Notes under the pieces: model-generated
The model's database searches: none
What the model saw: only the letters and a program-made list of their open reading frames with translations
What the model was told of the DNA's origin: nothing
Origin: a virus
Lineage: Duplodnaviria; Caudoviricetes
Reading direction: 5' to 3' (one strand)
DNA length: 29,139 nt
Virus record (IMG/VR): IMGVR_UViG_3300044825_000063
Location: 1 to 29,139 of that record
Program-made: the position numbers and the translations under genes
Part shown: positions 4,573 to 23,718 of the stretch, piece by piece
Layout of the letters: the number at the start of each line of letters is the position of its first letter
Position numbering within the stretch: the stretch's first letter is position 1

Positions 4573-6672
4573 ATGGCATACCGCGAAGGTCAAACAGCAA
4601 CAAACAAGCAAACCGGCGAACGGTTTGTTTTCCGAGGCGGCAAGTGGGAGTCATTAGCGCCACCGCCTGCCGCTGCGCGTGAGCGAGGAGCGAATTTACC
4701 GTCATCTGTTCAAGGCGCAATGACGTTTGGTCAAGGCGCGACGTTTAATATGCTTGACGAGTTGGCTGGCGCTGCTGCGCTTGGTCAACTTGGTCAGTCA
4801 TACGCAATGGGCGGCACCCAAACTGCGCCAACTCGCGCTGACTACACCGCGCCGCGTGACATCATTCGCGGCGGTACTGCGGCATTTGCAGAGCAAAACC
4901 CCAAAACCGCACTTGGCCTTGAAATGGCGGGCAGTCTTGCTACGTTGCCGTTCAGCATGGGCGGTTCTGCTGCCCCCTTGGGCGCTGGCATCATTTCTCG
5001 CGGCTCTCGCTATATTGCCCCTGTGGCAGCGCAAAGCGCGGTTGGTGCGGCAGGCGCAAGTGAGGCCGAAACAGCGTCTGACTTGGGCATGGACATTTTG
5101 TATGGCACCGGCACGGGCGTTGGCATTGGCGGTGCAACAGGCCTTGGCATCAAAGGCGCTGGTGCAGTCACGCGACGTATGGCGCCGACCATGCAGCGTG
5201 AATTTGAGTTGCAAGCACCAAGAGAGCGTCTAGCGCAACTTTTGCAGCGTGACGCCGCTGCCCGAATCCCGCCCGACACCATCGCCAAGCAAGATCGTAT
5301 CGCCGAGCTTGAGCGCCAATTAAAAGTCATTCCCGGCCCGTCGCTGATAAAAGCACGGATGCAAGAAGAACTGAATGCGCTAAAAAGCGGTGTAGAGGCT
5401 GATCCGACGCAAGTGGCTGCGGCTCGTTTGCAGCGTCCCCGTGGCGGCGGCCTTGGCCCAGAAGCGCCCATTGCTGCAACGGGTTCTGCTACTCGCGCAG
5501 AATTAGCGTTGCTGCGTAACGAGCCGGGTTCTACGCAAGGCATGATTGACAGATCAATGCGCCCGCTCGTCAACAAGCGCGGGGATCGTTTGCAGGCGTC
5601 GGCAGATGAACTGTTAGACGCGCAAGGCGTGCCGTTTAGAGCAACGGTGCGTCAATTTAACGAGCAAGCCAAAACTAGGGCTGCTCCGTACTACGCAAAA
5701 CTAGAAAACTACGACGTAACCGTAGACGCAGAGCTCGCTGCGCTTCTTAATCGTGCAAAAAAGACGTTTTCGGAAGCAGAAGAACTAGCCCTTGTTGAAG
5801 GAATGCCCGAAAAATTAAATCTTGGCAATTTGCGCCCCGGTGATCGCGTCCCGTTTAACGTATTAGATACGCTAAAGCGCACGTTGTACGACATTGAAGA
5901 AGGCGCAAAAGGCGATTTTGGCAAACCAACGCAAAAAAGCCGTGGTTACACCAATTTGCGCCGCGATTTAACGAACAAGTTGGACAATGTTGCGCCAAAA
6001 GACGACCAAGGACGTAGCGTTTACAAGTTAGCCCGCGATGAATTCAGCAGCGAGACGCAAATGGCAACCGCAATGGAGCGCGGTCGCAAAGTCATGTCAG
6101 AAGATGTGGAAGATTTAGAAGAAATCATTAATGACATGGAGCCAGCGCAATTAAGCGCGTTCCGACTTGGCGCTGCTCAAGCCTTGCGTGACAAAACAGC
6201 CAAGCCAGCAGGTCAAGCGGAATTGATGAATCTGCAAAAGTCACCCGGCTTGCAGAAGCGTTTGCGCTTGGTGTTTGGCAACGATTTCCGCAAGTTTCAA
6301 GCGACGGTGTTACGCGAAGCGGAATTGCAGGAAACGGCTCGCGCAGGCAAAGGATCGCAAACCTTTTCGCTGCTCAAAGGCGAAGAAGATCAAAACAAAC
6401 TTGCACAAGCTTTGCAGGCCGCGCAAATGTTGCAAGGCGACATGATTGCCGGTGCGGCAGCGGTCGCAGCCAAAGACAAAGGCAAGAAATTGACCGAACG
6501 TCAGCGCCAACAACTAGCAGAATTGTTGTTGTTACGCGGGCAGCCCGCGCAAGACGAATTGCGTAACATTCGGCTGTATATTGACCGTCGCGCAGCGGCG
6601 CAGAAACGCGCACAAGAAGCATCAGGGCGTATTGGCGCATTTGGCGCTGGATATGGCGCTGGTCAGGAATAG
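4573..6672 (+). CDS. Putative large DNA ejection (internal virion) protein
   Basis: GAGGA RBS; GQGATFNMLDELAG motif and Gly/Ala hydrophobic segments typical of podovirus injection proteins; 699 aa. Confidence 0.65.
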   Translation: MAYREGQTATNKQTGERFVFRGGKWESLAPPPAAARERGANLPSSVQGAMTFGQGATFNMLDELAGAAALGQLGQSYAMGGTQTAPTRADYTAPRDIIRGGTAAFAEQNPKTALGLEMAGSLATLPFSMGGSAAPLGAGIISRGSRYIAPVAAQSAVGAAGASEAETASDLGMDILYGTGTGVGIGGATGLGIKGAGAVTRRMAPTMQREFELQAPRERLAQLLQRDAAARIPPDTIAKQDRIAELERQLKVIPGPSLIKARMQEELNALKSGVEADPTQVAAARLQRPRGGGLGPEAPIAATGSATRAELALLRNEPGSTQGMIDRSMRPLVNKRGDRLQASADELLDAQGVPFRATVRQFNEQAKTRAAPYYAKLENYDVTVDAELAALLNRAKKTFSEAEELALVEGMPEKLNLGNLRPGDRVPFNVLDTLKRTLYDIEEGAKGDFGKPTQKSRGYTNLRRDLTNKLDNVAPKDDQGRSVYKLARDEFSSETQMATAMERGRKVMSEDVEDLEEIINDMEPAQLSAFRLGAAQALRDKTAKPAGQAELMNLQKSPGLQKRLRLVFGNDFRKFQATVLREAELQETARAGKGSQTFSLLKGEEDQNKLAQALQAAQMLQGDMIAGAAAVAAKDKGKKLTERQRQQLAELLLLRGQPAQDELRNIRLYIDRRAAAQKRAQEASGRIGAFGAGYGAGQE

Positions 6673-6682
6673 GAGATAAGCA

Positions 6683-8599
6683 ATGAGCTTTAACGGCAGC
6701 GGCGTATTTGTCATCAATTCGGCAGGCCAGCCGGTCGTTGCCAACACGGTTATCTCGTCAACCGTTTTCAACGCTCTGACGGCTGACCTTGCTACCGGCT
6801 TGACCAACTGCATTACCAAGGACGGTCAATCCACGCCCACGGCTAACATCCCGATGGGCAGCAACAAGATCACGGGCCTTGCGGTGGGTACGCTGGCGTC
6901 CGACGCCGCTAACCTCTCACAAGTACAGTCCACCTCGGTCAAACTAATTTCGGTCAGCGGTGCCGATACCGTTACCGGCACGCTCTCGCCTGTCCTTGCG
7001 GCGTATGAAGCAGGCCAGATGTTCTATTGGGTGGCCGCTGGCACCAATACCGGCGCTGTCACGCTCAACATCAACAGCCTTGGCGCAAAAGCCGTTACGC
7101 GAGACGGCAGCACGGCGCTGATCGCGGGTGACATCCAATCTGGCGAAATCGTGATGGTCGTCTACGACGGCACGCGGTTCCAGATGATCAACGCCGCCAA
7201 CTCGTTCGGCAACACGACGATTAACGGCACGCTGACGGTTACCGGCAACACGACGTTGCAGGCTAACGTCAGCATCGGTTCTACGTTGGTGGTAGGCGGT
7301 ACGCTGGCTGTGGTCGGACGATCCGACCTGCCGACCGTATCTACCGCCTCCATGAACGCAGCGGTGGCAGCGGTTACAGACCTGCGTGCTACCAGCGCCT
7401 CTATTACTTCCGCAAACGTCGGCACGGCGGTTATCTCCACAGGTACGGTGACTAACCTCACCTCCACCGCAGCCTCTATTGCGTCGGTTAATGCGGGCGT
7501 GGCGCTGCTGACGACGGCGACGGTTACCGACCTGTCGGCTACCAGCGCATCCATCGCATCGGCCAATCTGACCAACGCCAACATCACCAACCTCACGCTT
7601 TCGGGCGTGTCGGTAGCGTCGGCGAACTTTGGTGTCGCGAACGTCACGGACTTGCGTGCAGCGGGAGCCTCGGTCACCTCTGCCAATGTCGGCACAGCGG
7701 TCATCACGACCCTAACAGCCACGGGAGCCTCGGTCGCCTCGGCTAACGTCGGCACCGCAGCGGTTACCCGGTTGGATGCTACGGGGGCATCGGCTGCCTC
7801 CATCAACGCGGGCGTGGCGTTAATCACCACCGGCACGGTTACCAACCTGACATCCACTAGCGCGAGCATCGCCTCGGCTAACCTCGGCACGGCCAACATC
7901 ACGGCGCTGACGCTGACCGGCGTATCGGTCGCCTCGGCTAATGTTGGGGTTGCCAACATCACCGACCTGCGAGCGGCAGGCGCGTCGGTTACCTCGGCCA
8001 ACGTCGGCACGGCTGTCATCACCACGCTCACCGCCACAGGGGCGTCTATTGCCTCTGCCAATGCGGGACGGCTGGATGTCACGGCAGCCTCGGCAGCGTC
8101 CATTAACGGTGCGGTGGCGCTCTTTACGACCGGCACGGTGACGAACCTCACCTCTACGTCGGCCAGCATCGCCTCTGCCAACCTCGGCAACGCACAGGTC
8201 ACCGGAGCGAGCATCGCATCGGCCAATGTCGCGGCATTGACGGCAACAGGAGCGAGTATCGCCTCGGCCAATATCGGCACGGCGGTGATCAGCACGATTG
8301 CCTCAGTATCTATCGGCTCGGCCAACATCGGTACGGCGGCAATTTCCACGCTGACCGCTACCAACGCATCTATCGCCTCGGCAAACGTGGCAGCGATGCG
8401 GTTTATTGGCGCATCCTCGGGATACGTCGGCTTTATCGCTCAAACATCAGCAGGCTCTGCAACGTATACTTGGCCCAATGCCGATGGCATCAATGGGTAT
8501 GTGTTGCAAACCAATGGATCGGGAAACTTGTCTTGGGTCGCACAATCTGGCGGTGGCGGTGGCGGTGGCTCCAATGCTTACGCTTGGTTTATCTCTTGA
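6683..8599 (+). CDS. Tail fibre protein with pentapeptide-periodic beta repeats
   Basis: AGGAG RBS; N-terminal virion-anchor-like region (DLATGLTNCITKDGQSTPTANIPMG); NTGAVTLNINSLGAK motif; long S/T/A/N/V repeats; C-terminal GYVLQTNGSGNLSW motif. Confidence 0.8.
   Translation: MSFNGSGVFVINSAGQPVVANTVISSTVFNALTADLATGLTNCITKDGQSTPTANIPMGSNKITGLAVGTLASDAANLSQVQSTSVKLISVSGADTVTGTLSPVLAAYEAGQMFYWVAAGTNTGAVTLNINSLGAKAVTRDGSTALIAGDIQSGEIVMVVYDGTRFQMINAANSFGNTTINGTLTVTGNTTLQANVSIGSTLVVGGTLAVVGRSDLPTVSTASMNAAVAAVTDLRATSASITSANVGTAVISTGTVTNLTSTAASIASVNAGVALLTTATVTDLSATSASIASANLTNANITNLTLSGVSVASANFGVANVTDLRAAGASVTSANVGTAVITTLTATGASVASANVGTAAVTRLDATGASAASINAGVALITTGTVTNLTSTSASIASANLGTANITALTLTGVSVASANVGVANITDLRAAGASVTSANVGTAVITTLTATGASIASANAGRLDVTAASAASINGAVALFTTGTVTNLTSTSASIASANLGNAQVTGASIASANVAALTATGASIASANIGTAVISTIASVSIGSANIGTAAISTLTATNASIASANVAAMRFIGASSGYVGFIAQTSAGSATYTWPNADGINGYVLQTNGSGNLSWVAQSGGGGGGGSNAYAWFIS
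7544..8180 (+). repeat. Degenerate tandem duplication inside the tail fibre gene (units of 315 and 300 bp)
   Basis: SASIASANL recurs at 7544, 7859 and 8159; the intervening peptides align with one 5-residue indel. Confidence 0.85.
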
Positions 8600-8608
8600 G
8601 GTAAAAAC

Positions 8609-9484
8609 ATGGCACTTTTAATCCTTGATGCAACGACGAAATCCATTGAGGTCGCCATGTCAGGCGCGGCGGCCACAACCAACCCCGATTTCACGGCGGC
8701 ATGGGCCGATGACACGGGGTCGGCGTTTACCGAGGGCGCATCAGACGGTGCGCTAAACGGTACGTCTGCGGTCACGCTGGTAGCTGCCCCTGCCTCTAGC
8801 ACGCGCCGCGTCGTTAAAACCATCACCATTGAAAACAAGGACACGGCAGCCGTCACGCTGACCATCTCCTACAACAACAACAGCACCCTGCGAACCATTG
8901 CCAAGGTCACGTTGAACGTAGGCGACACTTGGACAACAGACGGCACGTTTGACACCAACGGCTCGTTTAAGCAGACCCTTGGTTCGGTCAATTTGTCCTC
9001 GGGCGTCACCGGCACGCTTCCGGTCGCTAACGGCGGCACAGGCGTTACGACCAGCACGGGTACGGGCAGCGTGGTGCTGTCCACTAGCCCCTCGCTTACG
9101 ACCCCGGTATTGGGTACGCCTACCTCGGGCAACTTGTCCAACTGCACGGCTGACGGCACTAACCTCGTCGGCTACCGCAACATCCCGCGCTCGGGATCGG
9201 CCAAGACCACCTCGTACACGCTTGCCACAGGCGATGTGGGTGAGTTCATTGAGGTGGGTTCTGGCGGCTCGGTGACGATTCCTGACGCCACGTTTGCGTT
9301 AGGTGATGTGGTGTCGGTGTTCAACAACACCACGGGCAATGTCACAATCACCTGCACGATCACAACGGCTTACATCGGCGGTACGGACGCAGACAAAGCA
9401 ACCGTCACGCTTGCAACAAGAGGGGTGGCGACAATTTTGTTCCTGTCGGGTACGGTGTGCGTTATCTCTGGCAACGTGAGCTAA
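8609..9484 (+). CDS. Tail fibre-associated structural protein
   Basis: GAGG RBS; Thr/Ser-rich; GTLPVANGGTG fibre motif. Confidence 0.7.
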   Translation: MALLILDATTKSIEVAMSGAAATTNPDFTAAWADDTGSAFTEGASDGALNGTSAVTLVAAPASSTRRVVKTITIENKDTAAVTLTISYNNNSTLRTIAKVTLNVGDTWTTDGTFDTNGSFKQTLGSVNLSSGVTGTLPVANGGTGVTTSTGTGSVVLSTSPSLTTPVLGTPTSGNLSNCTADGTNLVGYRNIPRSGSAKTTSYTLATGDVGEFIEVGSGGSVTIPDATFALGDVVSVFNNTTGNVTITCTITTAYIGGTDADKATVTLATRGVATILFLSGTVCVISGNVS

Positions 9485-18109: not shown

Positions 18110-18177
18110 GGTTGCTAGTTTAGCAACCTAAACGGCCATGTCAACACCCTAGGCAAAAAAAGTTTAGACGGATAGAC
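18110..18177. promoter_or_regulatory. Operator-like palindromes in the divergent control region
   Basis: GTTTAG-caac-CTAAAC (18118-18133), imperfect copy GTTTAG-acgg-ATAGAC (18162-18177) and overlapping GGTTGCTA-gtt-TAGCAACC (18110-18128). Confidence 0.6.
18117..18144 (-). promoter_or_regulatory. Leftward early sigma70 promoter (pL-like)
   Basis: Minus strand TTGACA-N16-TAAACT with TG extended -10. Confidence 0.75.
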
Positions 18178-18178
18178 T
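18150..18178 (+). promoter_or_regulatory. Rightward early promoter (pR-like), probably giving leaderless cro mRNA
   Basis: TAGGCA-N17-TAGACT ending 7 nt before the cro ATG; no SD sequence. Confidence 0.55.
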
Positions 18179-18185
18179 GCCGAGC

Positions 18186-18353
18186 ATGGACATACAGAAG
18201 CTCATCAAACGATACGGTAGCCAGCAGGCCGTTGCTGCGGCCCTCGGCGTTACCAAAGGCGCTGTAAGCCAATGGGTAAAGGCTGGGGCGATCCCTGCGG
18301 CTAGGCTGTGGCAGATCAAAGCCGGGGCTGTAAAGCCGCCAAAAGGACGTTAG
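18186..18353 (+). CDS. cro: Cro-like HTH regulator (55 aa), absent from ORF track
   Basis: Manual translation MDIQKLIKRYGSQQAVAAALGVTKGAVSQWVKAGAIPAARLWQIKAGAVKPPKGR, with a classic HTH (AAALGVTKGAVSQW) and IP..R. Confidence 0.92.
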   Translation: MDIQKLIKRYGSQQAVAAALGVTKGAVSQWVKAGAIPAARLWQIKAGAVKPPKGR

Positions 18354-18361
18354 TGGACGCT

Positions 18362-18390
18362 AAAACGAAAAGCCCCCGTGAAGGGGGCTT
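18362..18390 (-). terminator. Intrinsic terminator oriented for a leftward (antisense) transcript
   Basis: Stem AAGCCCCC/GGGGGCTT (18370-18390) with 5-nt loop; U-tract (TTTTCGTTTT) only on the minus strand. Confidence 0.75.
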
Positions 18391-18437
18391 GACGCTGCCG
18401 GGGGACTGGCATTACGCTGAATGTGCAATGTAGCGTG
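18362..18437 (-). ncRNA. Predicted ~76-nt antisense small RNA (OOP/RNA I-like)
   Basis: Bounded by a minus-strand promoter and a minus-strand terminator; three predicted hairpins; no ORF. Confidence 0.55.
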
Positions 18438-18443
18438 GTCAGG

Positions 18444-18472
18444 ATTCTGACGAGCCGTTCTGGTTCTGTCAA
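18444..18472 (-). promoter_or_regulatory. Antisense sigma70 promoter
   Basis: Minus strand TTGACA-N17-CAGAAT; the -10 is covered by palindrome GTCAG-gatt-CTGAC (18438-18451). Confidence 0.65.
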
Positions 18473-18484
18473 CAAACCCATCAC

Positions 18485-18640
18485 GCAGCCCCTTGACATG
18501 GGCCAAATCTGTCAGCGGAGGGCCGGTCGTTTGGATCGGGCTGGACACCGCTTACCAAAGTCCAGCGGGCCTAAACACCGTGGCTATACGGGCATAGGCT
18601 TGGCCTCGCTGCCTTCCGCAGAAGTGGGGGGTAGGGGGGC
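18485..18640 (+). other. Highly structured non-coding element ending in G6-TA-G6 (candidate replication origin/primer RNA)
   Basis: Nested inverted repeats GCTGGAC/GTCCAGC, GCCTA/TAGGC, CCGTG/TACGG, CTTC/GAAG and closing stem CAGCGGAGGGCC/GGCCTCGCTG; GGGGGGTAGGGGGG at 18626-18639. Confidence 0.45.
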
Positions 18641-18675
18641 CATTCCCGGGCTTCCGAGCATTGGGGTATTAAGAC

Positions 18676-19176
18676 ATGGGTAAGATGACAGAAGCACAGA
18701 GAATACGGGTAGCAAGCAGATACGTCAGGGCAGTCAGAGGTAGAGGACTGCAATCTGGTGAATCGCCAATCAAGTTAGCCGTAAAACTGTTAACAGAAAT
18801 GCACCATGCACCGTGTATTGGGGTGCCAGAAAAAAACATTGATTACTTAGACAAGCACCACGCGGTGATGCTGGAGGTAATTAGCGCCAACAAGCACAAA
18901 TTGCCGAAACGAACGAAACGCGCGAAACCAGAGTTTTTAGAGAGTTTTGCGTGGCGCAAAGTGCGAATGGAAGCCTTGCTGAAGTTTGGCCCCAAATGTA
19001 TGTGCTGCGGCGCTACCCCTGCGACGGGCGCGGTAATGCACGTTGATCACATCAAGCCCCGCTTAACGCATCCAGAATTAGCGTTAGAGCTTGATAACCT
19101 CCAAATCCTTTGCCACGAGTGCAACCACGGTAAAGGTAATTGGGACAGCACCGATTGGCGGGGGAAACATGGGTGA
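18676..19176 (+). CDS. HNH endonuclease (McrA-type, Zn-binding)
   Basis: CMCCG...HVDHIKP...DNLQILCHECNHGK. Confidence 0.92.
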   Translation: MGKMTEAQRIRVASRYVRAVRGRGLQSGESPIKLAVKLLTEMHHAPCIGVPEKNIDYLDKHHAVMLEVISANKHKLPKRTKRAKPEFLESFAWRKVRMEALLKFGPKCMCCGATPATGAVMHVDHIKPRLTHPELALELDNLQILCHECNHGKGNWDSTDWRGKHG

Positions 19177-19501
19177 TGAATTCACTTACTTTCCGACTAA
19201 ACAGGCTCAACCGGAAAAGCCTAAACCCAGTCACAACTTAGAACACCAGTTCCACTCCAATCAGGTGATGTGGAATTCGGCAGTACAGGAATCCCCGCTA
19301 AACCGCTTAAAGTTCTACGACGCACAGTTAGCCAGAGGCGTTGAGGTCAACCGTGATAGGGTCGCTGAACTGATCCGAGAGGCTGGCGCTGCTGCCGTGC
19401 TGTCGGATAGGGATACGATTGGGCTGGTACGCCAGCTTTGGGGTGAAAAGGCGGTGGAGAAGTTGCGTGCGCGTGCCAAAACTGAACAAGTACAGAGGTA
19501 A
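19169..19501 (+). CDS. Hypothetical protein (110 aa)
   Basis: ATG at 19169 after GGGGG overlapping the HNH stop; helical composition. Confidence 0.65.
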   Translation: MGDEFTYFPTKQAQPEKPKPSHNLEHQFHSNQVMWNSAVQESPLNRLKFYDAQLARGVEVNRDRVAELIREAGAAAVLSDRDTIGLVRQLWGEKAVEKLRARAKTEQVQR

Positions 19502-22397: not shown

Positions 22398-22684
22398 CCG
22401 CCGCGTGGACTCGTAGCGAAGGCAAGAACCCCAAGGGCGGGCTGAACGCCAAGGGCCGCGCCAGCTACAAGCGTGAGACGGGGGGAACTCTTAAGCCGCC
22501 GGTCAAATCGGGTGACAATCCACGCCGAGCCTCTTTCCTCGCACGGATGGGCAATATGCCGGGGCCGATGGCAAAAGACGGTAAGCCCACACGCCTAGCC
22601 CTCGCACTCAAGGCATGGGGAGCCTCTAGTAAGGAGGACGCCCGAGCCAAGGCCAAAGCCATCAGCAGCAGGAACAAGGCATGA
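22394..22684 (+). CDS. Basic conserved phage protein (DUF6321-like)
   Basis: AWTRSEGKNPKGGLNAKGRASY...RRASFLARMG...ALKAW. Confidence 0.8.
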   Translation: MTAAWTRSEGKNPKGGLNAKGRASYKRETGGTLKPPVKSGDNPRRASFLARMGNMPGPMAKDGKPTRLALALKAWGASSKEDARAKAKAISSRNKA

Positions 22685-23718
22685 ATCGCAAACGCCTTGC
22701 CGCTGCACTCGCCTACGTTGACGAGAAGGCAAAGCGCCTGACGAGCCTAGACCAGCCTAAAGAGTCTGACGCCGTGGACATGGCGCTAGAGATGGGCGGT
22801 AGTTTTATCCCCGGCGTAGGCCAAGCCCTTGCTGCCCGCGACTTTGAACGCGCCCGCCGAGCCGGTGACGAAGCTGGTATGGGCATGGCCGCTGCGTCGG
22901 CTTTGCCCGTGGGACGGTTAATCGGTGCGCTAAAGGGCTTTGACCCCGTAATGCGCGAAATTGACGTTTATCACGGTAGCCCGCACCGTTTTGACGAGTT
23001 TGACGCCAGTAAGATCGGCACGGGTGAGGGCGCACAAGCGTATGGGCATGGCATTTACCTTGCCGAAAGCCCTGATGTGGCTAAAACCTACCAATCAGCA
23101 CAAAGCCCTTCAGCGCGTAAAGCAACGATGACGTTGCAAGCATCTGACGGGAACGTAAATAAAGCCATTGCTGCAATGAAAAAAGAAGTTGCAACAATGA
23201 CTGCTCATAAAGATTCGCCGTATTTGCGGCAGGGTGCGTTTCAAGAGACGCAAGACGCGCTAAATTATCTGCAACAAATGAAAAAGGGCGCTGCACCGCA
23301 AACGGGCGCGCTTTACACCGCCGACCTACCCGACGAAATGGTAGATCGGATGCTGGATTGGGATAAGCCGTTAATTGAACAAAGGCCAATATTGAAGGCT
23401 CTAACAGAAATGGCAAACCGCGATAGAACCGGGGCGTCAGCGGTCGCGGCTAGAACCGCTCGCTCCATCCTTCAACGCGCTGGACAGGCAGCAGATAGTT
23501 ACGGAAAAGACAAAGTAACTGGCGCTTCATTGTATGACTCGTTTTTAGCAGATGAGATACCAGACCAAGCACAACGGTCGCAATTTCTTAAAGATTTAGG
23601 CATCCCCGGCATCCGATACCTAGACGCAGGCAGCCGAGGCCAAGGCGGTAGCGGCACCCGTAACTTCGTCGTGTTCCCCGGTGAAGAAAAGAAGGTCAAG
23701 ATACTAAAGCGCGAATGA
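22681..23718 (+). CDS. Protein with pre-toxin-like N-terminus and ADP-ribosyltransferase-like domain
   Basis: SFIPGVGQALAARD; VYHGSPH...GEGAQAYGHGIYLAE...GIPGIRY...NFVVF pattern seen in phage polyvalent proteins. Confidence 0.55.
   Translation: MNRKRLAAALAYVDEKAKRLTSLDQPKESDAVDMALEMGGSFIPGVGQALAARDFERARRAGDEAGMGMAAASALPVGRLIGALKGFDPVMREIDVYHGSPHRFDEFDASKIGTGEGAQAYGHGIYLAESPDVAKTYQSAQSPSARKATMTLQASDGNVNKAIAAMKKEVATMTAHKDSPYLRQGAFQETQDALNYLQQMKKGAAPQTGALYTADLPDEMVDRMLDWDKPLIEQRPILKALTEMANRDRTGASAVAARTARSILQRAGQAADSYGKDKVTGASLYDSFLADEIPDQAQRSQFLKDLGIPGIRYLDAGSRGQGGSGTRNFVVFPGEEKKVKILKRE

Follow-up and report, generated by a model that had tools for sequence, protein, structure and literature searches.

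The window, by which we mean the whole 29,139-nt stretch of DNA analysed here, is a 29-kb partial phage record with divergent early arms. The leftward arm encodes Erf, a YqaJ exonuclease, SSB and NinB, and the rightward arm consists, in order, of cro, a gap, an HNH gene, a 110-aa ORF, a methyltransferase, VRR-NUC and the packaging genes. The initial annotation, which proposed an RNA-primed replication origin in the gap, had noticed about 320 bp without a convincing gene, and this observation held: 322 bp (18354–18675) separate cro from the HNH gene. An 86-aa ORF at 18423–18683 was rejected as a gene because its variable columns were spread equally across the codon positions (45/60, 45/59 and 43/60). 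Furthermore, 22 of 38 relatives differed there in length by a non-multiple of three, the frame was open in only 13 of 39 variants, and the ORF had no Pfam or PHROG match. The ORF is not conserved, and the codon-type conservation that had been named as evidence against an RNA element was absent. The features of the locus are as follows.

18186–18353, plus strand: cro-like HTH gene (Pfam P22_Cro, E 6e-12; PHROG repressor/regulator)
18360–18390, minus strand: intrinsic-terminator-like hairpin with a T-rich tail, the predicted 3' end of an antisense RNA of ~70 nt
18389–18418, plus strand: predicted sigma-70 promoter, TTGACG-N18-TACGCT, with its start predicted near 18425
18444–18472, minus strand: predicted antisense promoter, TTGACA-N17-CAGAAT (10 of 12 matches), start near 18437
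18485–18663, plus strand: body of the type B structured RNA (39-variant alignment)
18493–18515, plus strand: P1, strong support (both-side changes in 5 of 8 pairs)
18516–18521 with 18651–18656, plus strand: P2, a weak closing stem, weak support
18523–18539, plus strand: P3, fair support
18540–18566, plus strand: P4, strong support (6 of 7 pairs)
18568–18600, plus strand: P5, with the invariant ATACGGGCA, weak support
18601–18642, plus strand: P6, fair support at its ends
18626–18639, plus strand: G6-TA-G6 tract in the 3' arm of P6, invariant (G5-TTA-G6 in variants)
18676–19176, plus strand: HNH endonuclease gene, an optional passenger (behind 19 of 64 type B elements)
19169–19501, plus strand: ORF 19169, a 110-aa helical protein, encoded behind DUF1376 at 32 of 35 initiator-type loci

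The cro transcript may extend into the RNA element. By eye, a TAGGCA-N17-TAGACT motif in 18150–18186 ends 7 nt before the cro ATG, a distance that suggests a leaderless cro mRNA, and a leftward promoter-like site (18144–18117) overlaps this region upstream of cro. Different optional ORFs, the HNH gene among them, lie directly 3' of type B elements; homing nucleases could be drivers of origin-cassette swapping. Elsewhere in the window, a protein of 345 aa bearing an ART-PolyVal ADP-ribosyltransferase domain (E 4e-7) is encoded at 22681–23718, directly before the terminase genes. A 638-aa tail-fibre-like protein made up largely of Ser/Ala/Val/Thr repeats is encoded at 6683–8599; the corresponding position in a complete relative (G001) is taken by another tail fibre, of 1073 aa. 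Among the G001 ORFs scanned, neither a cI nor an integrase family was found.

Fold and conservation of the type B element

Scanning with a type B pattern found 92 viral stretches, and the 147 pattern matches over all loci reduced to 40 distinct variants, of which 39 were aligned and one partial copy was dropped. On a six-helix model with the inner P5 stem, 86% of cells were paired across the 39 variants, compared to at most 49% in slid controls. Covariation among relatives, which had been suggested as a check on the RNA, was present, with both-side changes in 21 of 56 pairs; the shuffle control ignores relatedness, so these counts are not probabilities. Helix 6 had no double change in the 39-variant alignment. 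The plus strand of 18354–18690 folded better than its shuffles (z –4.4; minus strand, z –1.8). With RNA parameters, the plus strand was better in 12 of the 13 variants tested (z –2.47 vs –0.63), whereas DNA parameters gave no strand bias (z –1.11 vs –1.19; 7 of 13 variants). Rfam 15 gave 0 matches above the gathering threshold in the window (best E for type B, 6.5), and blastn against cultured phages and plasmids returned nothing beyond short or terminator matches. The stretch 18485–18663 is a conserved non-coding family. The element is likely transcribed; the evidence from RNA runs consists of assembled contigs with small shares, which carry neither strand nor transcript ends. Among GTDB contigs, two of nine pattern matches were real, both on short MAG contigs that are perhaps misbinned phage.

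The three hairpins drawn in the initial annotation were recovered at their positions (18523–18539, 18540–18566 and 18568–18600). Its closing stem (18513–18524 with 18602–18611) can be drawn with 10 pairs but overlaps the first of these hairpins at 18523–18524; this stem was discarded, having a mean pair probability of ≤ 0.07 in all seven transcript lengths tried, 67% pairing over the 39 variants and covariation that was equalled by 346 of 500 shuffles. A 4-bp CTTC/GAAG hairpin is likewise not the predicted fold, in which 18601–18619 pairs with 18624–18642 instead. The ATACGGGCA of P5 lies at 18586–18594 and is nearly repeated in the P1 loop at 18498–18505 (exactly so in the L188 group); the two are possible twin protein-binding sites.

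The tract GGGGGGTAGGGGGG at 18626–18639 is the sole match in the window when up to one mismatch is allowed, and 0 of 100 shuffles contained such a match; it is beyond chance. It had been drawn after the last hairpin, outside any stem, and here its presence and uniqueness stood; an unpaired state did not, since the G's are predicted to be paired (mean probability 0.93) within P6, an 18-pair hairpin with the tract in its 3' arm. The tract was also paired in the MFE folds, read by eye, of all 39 variants. This predicted pairing argues against a free tract unless folding is kinetic. The partners of the tract G's toggle between C and U and the tract itself is invariant; the pairs are C-G or U-G and never U-A, which suggests that the G's are kept for something beyond pairing. 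The tract is conserved in relatives, as had been anticipated, although its invariance is partly built in, because loci were collected partly by a pattern that contains the tract. Independent invariance comes from 30 loci reached via the upstream module (among the matches listed) and 8 reached via ORF 19169.

Occupants of the slot after cro and the retained downstream gene

Upstream of the element lies a module of predicted promoters and terminator (18360–18472). The terminator-like hairpin and an A-tract are conserved among relatives, and a covarying hairpin lies within the spacer of the predicted promoter at 18389–18418. Of the 36 distinct modules, 33 were parsed, and in each of these the spacer measured 17 or 18 nt (the pattern allowed 16–19); a promoter scan did not list the site, and its sequence suggests that it functions as a promoter. 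The –10/–35 spacing of the antisense promoter was 16–17 in 33 of 36 distinct A/B modules. With both starts as predicted, the antisense RNA overlaps the transcript from 18425 by ~13 nt, and in full only upon read-through from cro. The antisense –35 word was also present in 32 of 35 loci that carry a DUF1376 gene in the slot (see below); the layout resembles that of lambda pO/oop and of RNA I, but because DUF1376 carriers share the antisense module, it does not serve as an RNA I for a primer alone.

When viral contigs were scanned for this module, at least 119 stretches, which are not independent genomes, were obtained (about 220 exist). Among the matches listed, 5 of 119 were unrelated and lacked the module, 10 of 119 were incomplete, and 104 were classifiable. 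In these listed matches, type A RNA was the commonest occupant of the slot (66 of 104, 2 by eye), type B RNA was found in 30 of 104, and a DUF1376 winged-helix gene in 8 of 104 (1 by eye). No locus examined held two of the three occupants. RNA A and the G tract were absent from all 40 DUF1376 loci, two complete DUF1376 genomes had neither RNA A nor RNA B, and DUF1376 was absent from five of five complete type B genomes and one type A genome (control positive in 4/4). Among the 35 parsable DUF1376 loci of the 40, the upstream module was present in 32 (23 by pattern, 9 by eye) and an ORF 19169 homolog lay downstream in 32, mostly ~450 bp from the start. One complete DUF1376 genome had 20 of the 27 window proteins tested in common (cro 87%, Erf 88%). 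In L395–L397, DUF1376 directly follows cro without the promoter/antisense module, a fourth slot arrangement.

The slot gene was confirmed as DUF1376 in all five cases tested (E 1e-18 to 1e-22). Its PHROG label is 'primosomal protein', with the match confined to the first ~130 of 272–345 positions. The DUF1376 model is a winged helix, for which fold matches were generic only (best Zur, Z 6.7, rmsd 3.0, 75 residues). In addition, 11-bp-spaced iteron-like repeats lie beside AT-rich repeats within the coding sequence in all three genes examined, which would correspond to the layout of a lambda-type origin within an initiator gene. DUF1376 is a putative initiator or origin-binding protein; the accessible part of PMC5795418 assigns no function to it.

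The other RNA elements were located as follows.

L020, 2609–2979, and G002, 6624–6850 (minus strand in G002): type A RNA, ~220 nt
L168, ~8920–9060, minus strand, and G005; also L062, L072, L086, L088, L121 and L133: type C G-hairpin element, actinophage-like
L134/G015, 1–1020; also L065, L115 and L131: type D G-hairpin element, from temperate phages that encode an integrase

Type A had 18 of 44 pairs compensatory, no long G tract and no Rfam match (best E 3.8), and it is unrelated to type B, as neither CM matched the other type. Since type A fills the same slot without G6-TA-G6, the tract is dispensable for the function of the slot in general. The exact 17-mer around the G tract matched 103 viral stretches, and in many unrelated phages the tract likewise forms a hairpin's 3' arm; these wider loci were selected by the tract and serve as leads only. 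In type D (G015, 98% complete), the element follows cI and cro and precedes a small ORF, behind which lies a P-like helicase loader (phrog_109, E 7e-5); CM matches to this type (E 7e-7 to 8e-4) are inflated because the loci were picked for the G tract. By eye, the small ORF resembles an initiator C-terminal domain, with no PHROG match, and in L107 an element lies upstream of a stand-alone initiator C-terminal domain. Type C is divergent from an exonuclease-helicase-primase operon; G005 has genes for a helicase and a primase but revealed no O-like initiator. In L064 and L079, ordinary initiator genes contain the same G tract in antisense orientation and unpaired. The tract may mark origins at the DNA level too.

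A 176-aa protein has a second half homologous to ORF 19169 (hhalign 94.7%, E 6e-8) and a first half that matches the C-terminal part of O-like initiators only (phrog_678, positions 222–307 of 346, E 2e-13). In G009, the 176-aa ORF lies 141 bp after the G tract of a type B element. At least 700 nt of downstream sequence was available for 64 of the 92 type B loci: a stand-alone initiator C-terminal domain was present in 53 of these 64, and this domain and/or an ORF 19169 homolog in 64 of 64. The C-terminal module is thus retained, so that the RNA replaces only the N-terminal DNA-binding half and the repeats. The ORF 19169 family is 92–100% identical in part of the set, behind both unrelated RNAs. 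ORF 19169 had no clear fold match (best Z 5.9), and a search of 217–2000 aa gave no longer fused form, a weak negative in that the 176-aa fusion falls outside this range.

Scanning 48 ORFs of the window yielded no initiator, helicase, primase or polymerase, and because this record is incomplete, complete relatives were tested. In G001, a complete type B genome with terminal repeats (34,174 bp), 45 of the 48 called ORFs were scanned, and none matched a helicase, a primase, a polymerase or a whole initiator. Seven further complete A/B genomes contributed 134 of 389 ORFs without a match in G001 or the window, and the 111 cluster representatives of these gave the same negative result for all four. 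These absences come from profile searches on a simple ORF caller that can miss overlapped genes, as it missed cro in G001. A conventional initiator or iterons elsewhere in the genome, which the initial annotation had named as evidence against its proposal, were not found. The detrended GC-skew minimum lay –1.2 to +0.3 kb from the element in 8 of 9 genomes; it was left unused because the minimum coincides with the transcription switch and skews at four-fold sites were inconsistent.

Taken together, the placement of an RNA where an initiator is expected has comparative support, because relatives with the same module and downstream gene carry DUF1376 with iteron-like repeats there, while the idea that an O/P system was replaced wholesale fell with the retained C-terminal module.

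A probable RNA-activated origin and its rivals

Among these uncultured phages, the RNA lies exactly where close relatives keep the likely origin-binding half of an initiator, and an RNA-activated origin is therefore likely; that the element is an origin of some kind, one acting at the DNA level included, is highly probable. We favor an RNA/R-loop origin that replaces the DNA-binding half of the initiator and its iterons, in which the RNA 3' end primes and the retained module loads the helicase, and give this reading a probability of roughly 0.55. RNA polymerase would start at 18425, or read through from cro, and the 5' stems of the element RNA would fold co-transcriptionally. At the G tract, the nascent RNA would either close the G-U-rich P6 and be released, with no firing, or remain hybridised to the template in a persistent R-loop, which an RNA-DNA hybrid quadruplex might hold in place. 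In the latter case, host enzymes would extend the RNA 3' end into the leading strand, with the retained C-terminal module (ORF 19169) assisting in the loading of the host helicase onto the displaced strand. Firing would be modulated by the convergent antisense promoter, in the manner of lambda pO.

In the main rival reading, the nascent RNA could also replace the DNA-binding domain without priming, as a scaffold that tethers the C-terminal module and the host helicase while host primase makes the primers. Retention of the module in 64 of 64 loci would suit such a scaffold, as would the invariant, weakly paired ATACGGGCA and a CCGAGCA word that resemble protein sites, the use of type A without a G tract, and activation by the ColE1 R-loop without priming, as given in the accessible part of PMC4412123. 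We nevertheless consider the scaffold unlikely, since the same ORF 19169 family behind two unrelated RNAs is hard to reconcile with a specific RNA-binding adaptor, and the invariant G tract would go unexplained. Should the hairpins instead act on the displaced or extruded plus strand, like an ssi or primosome-assembly site, the RNA would be incidental; in an R-loop, RNA and displaced strand share one sequence, which by itself cannot tell RNA from ssDNA. The fold is weak and without strand bias under DNA parameters, unlike under RNA parameters, and P6 relies on many G-U pairs, which together leave this DNA-level origin a slight chance.

Two roles outside initiation, as a regulatory leader or as an HNH guide, both fit the swap poorly. 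A leader, attenuator or put-like antiterminator of the rightward operon, for which HK022 put is a precedent as an antiterminator RNA, would leave replication to recombination (Erf, SSB, NinB, resolvase). In its favor, the element lies immediately behind cro, where the operon begins; the long hairpin P6 has a pyrimidine-rich run behind it, and recombination genes are present. We regard this as improbable, if less so than the DNA-level origin, because DUF1376 carriers run the same downstream genes without such an RNA, because a leader would not predict that the RNA and the iteron-bearing gene are never found together, and because a single incoming genome requires some first initiation. An HNH-associated guide or mobile-element RNA (HEARO/OMEGA-like) is suggested by the HNH gene that adjoins the element in the window, but HNH follows only 19 of 64 elements, many elements lead directly into the initiator C-terminal gene and no Rfam match was found, which makes such a guide very improbable.

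If we return to the RNA/R-loop origin, a wider reading can be put forward tentatively, at somewhat less than even odds: lambdoid-type phages repeatedly swapped the DNA-binding half of the initiator and its iterons for small RNAs, giving a hybrid RNA-protein initiator in which an R-loop/G-tract switch marks the origin and the protein loads the helicase. Its basis is at least two unrelated RNA families, plus the G-hairpin cousins in other phage groups. Many small phage genomes show no replication genes. The loci described here are natural alleles, in which a protein initiator, RNA A or RNA B stands between a common upstream module and a common downstream gene. If our reading is true, two further RNA origin families of ~180–220 nt would be added, an initiator could be split with RNA taking over origin recognition, and the G5-6 T(T)A G6 hairpin would become a searchable origin marker in initiator-less phages. 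Such elements would also provide compact replicons and a bacterial model of G-tract-controlled R-loop priming.

Comparison with known origins

The lambda O/P origin, as far as the accessible part of PMC3985674 describes it, shares with these loci the slot after cro and, as predicted here, a short convergent antisense RNA ahead of that slot and a transcript that crosses the origin. Intragenic repeats and an AT-rich stretch are found in the DUF1376 allele. Unlike lambda, the window has no DNA-binding initiator half or iteron array in the slot and carries a folded RNA instead. In lambda, pO/oop affects origin firing via promoter activity and not via the RNA, according to the same part of PMC3985674.

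With ColE1 RNA II/RNA I (NC_001371; accessible part of PMC4412123), the element shares a predicted structured, G-rich transcript with a G6 run near its 3' end. A convergent antisense promoter with a terminator, both predicted here, is a further point in common, and no origin-binding protein was recognised. RNA II is about 550 nt, whereas the body of the element here is ~180 nt, its G tract is predicted to be paired, and a C-terminal initiator module is encoded. The antisense RNA also differs, lying mostly upstream of the predicted start and being present in initiator carriers too. Searches of the RNA II region of NC_001371 with nhmmer and CMs of types A and B gave no match (for the origin comparison, one of the 21 alignment rows contained no sequence and did not enter the CM). 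The accessible part of PMC4412123 states that the ColE1 R-loop depends on rG:dC contact and that it can activate replication without priming. The retained C-terminal module, which is foreign to ColE1-type origins, points equally to helicase loading without RNA priming.

In cluster A mycobacteriophages, a non-coding region of ~600 bp suffices for replication as an alternative to repA (accessible part of PMC7157519, as for the points on this cluster that follow). The origins of Alma, RedRock and Gladiator share with the element that a non-coding region is the alternative to an initiator gene of sister phages (PMC7157519). By eye, they also have an A-tract with a GC hairpin, a –10-like word on the opposite strand and a structured body. 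However, types A and B had no HMM or CM match in the three origins (best CM E 6.1, type A in the Alma origin), and a by-eye likeness of type A to both ColE1 RNA II and the mycobacteriophage origins failed the HMM/CM tests. The cluster A origins adjoin parABS, serve the plasmid prophage only and occur with phage polymerase genes (PMC7157519); unlike them, the element here occupies a lambdoid cro-O-P slot and half of an initiator is retained. Neither ParA nor ParB was found among the window ORFs or 45 G001 ORFs. As there is no match to the cluster A origins or ColE1, the element at most works like them and is not a member of either group.

Mitochondrial CSB II (accessible part of PMC3488243) shares a split G tract on the transcribed-sense strand with the potential for an RNA-DNA hybrid quadruplex. 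The tract here differs in having its own complementary arm, with which it is predicted to pair at equilibrium, and a quadruplex would be expected by analogy only. A description of the element was not found in the literature searched, which left most subscription papers outside it, and six files of a catalogue of structured phage RNAs (PMC10690425) gave 0 matches; the motif may still be contained in other supplements, without a function. RNA-based phage origins are known already, and the RNA family described here is apparently a new one among the structured RNAs of phages.
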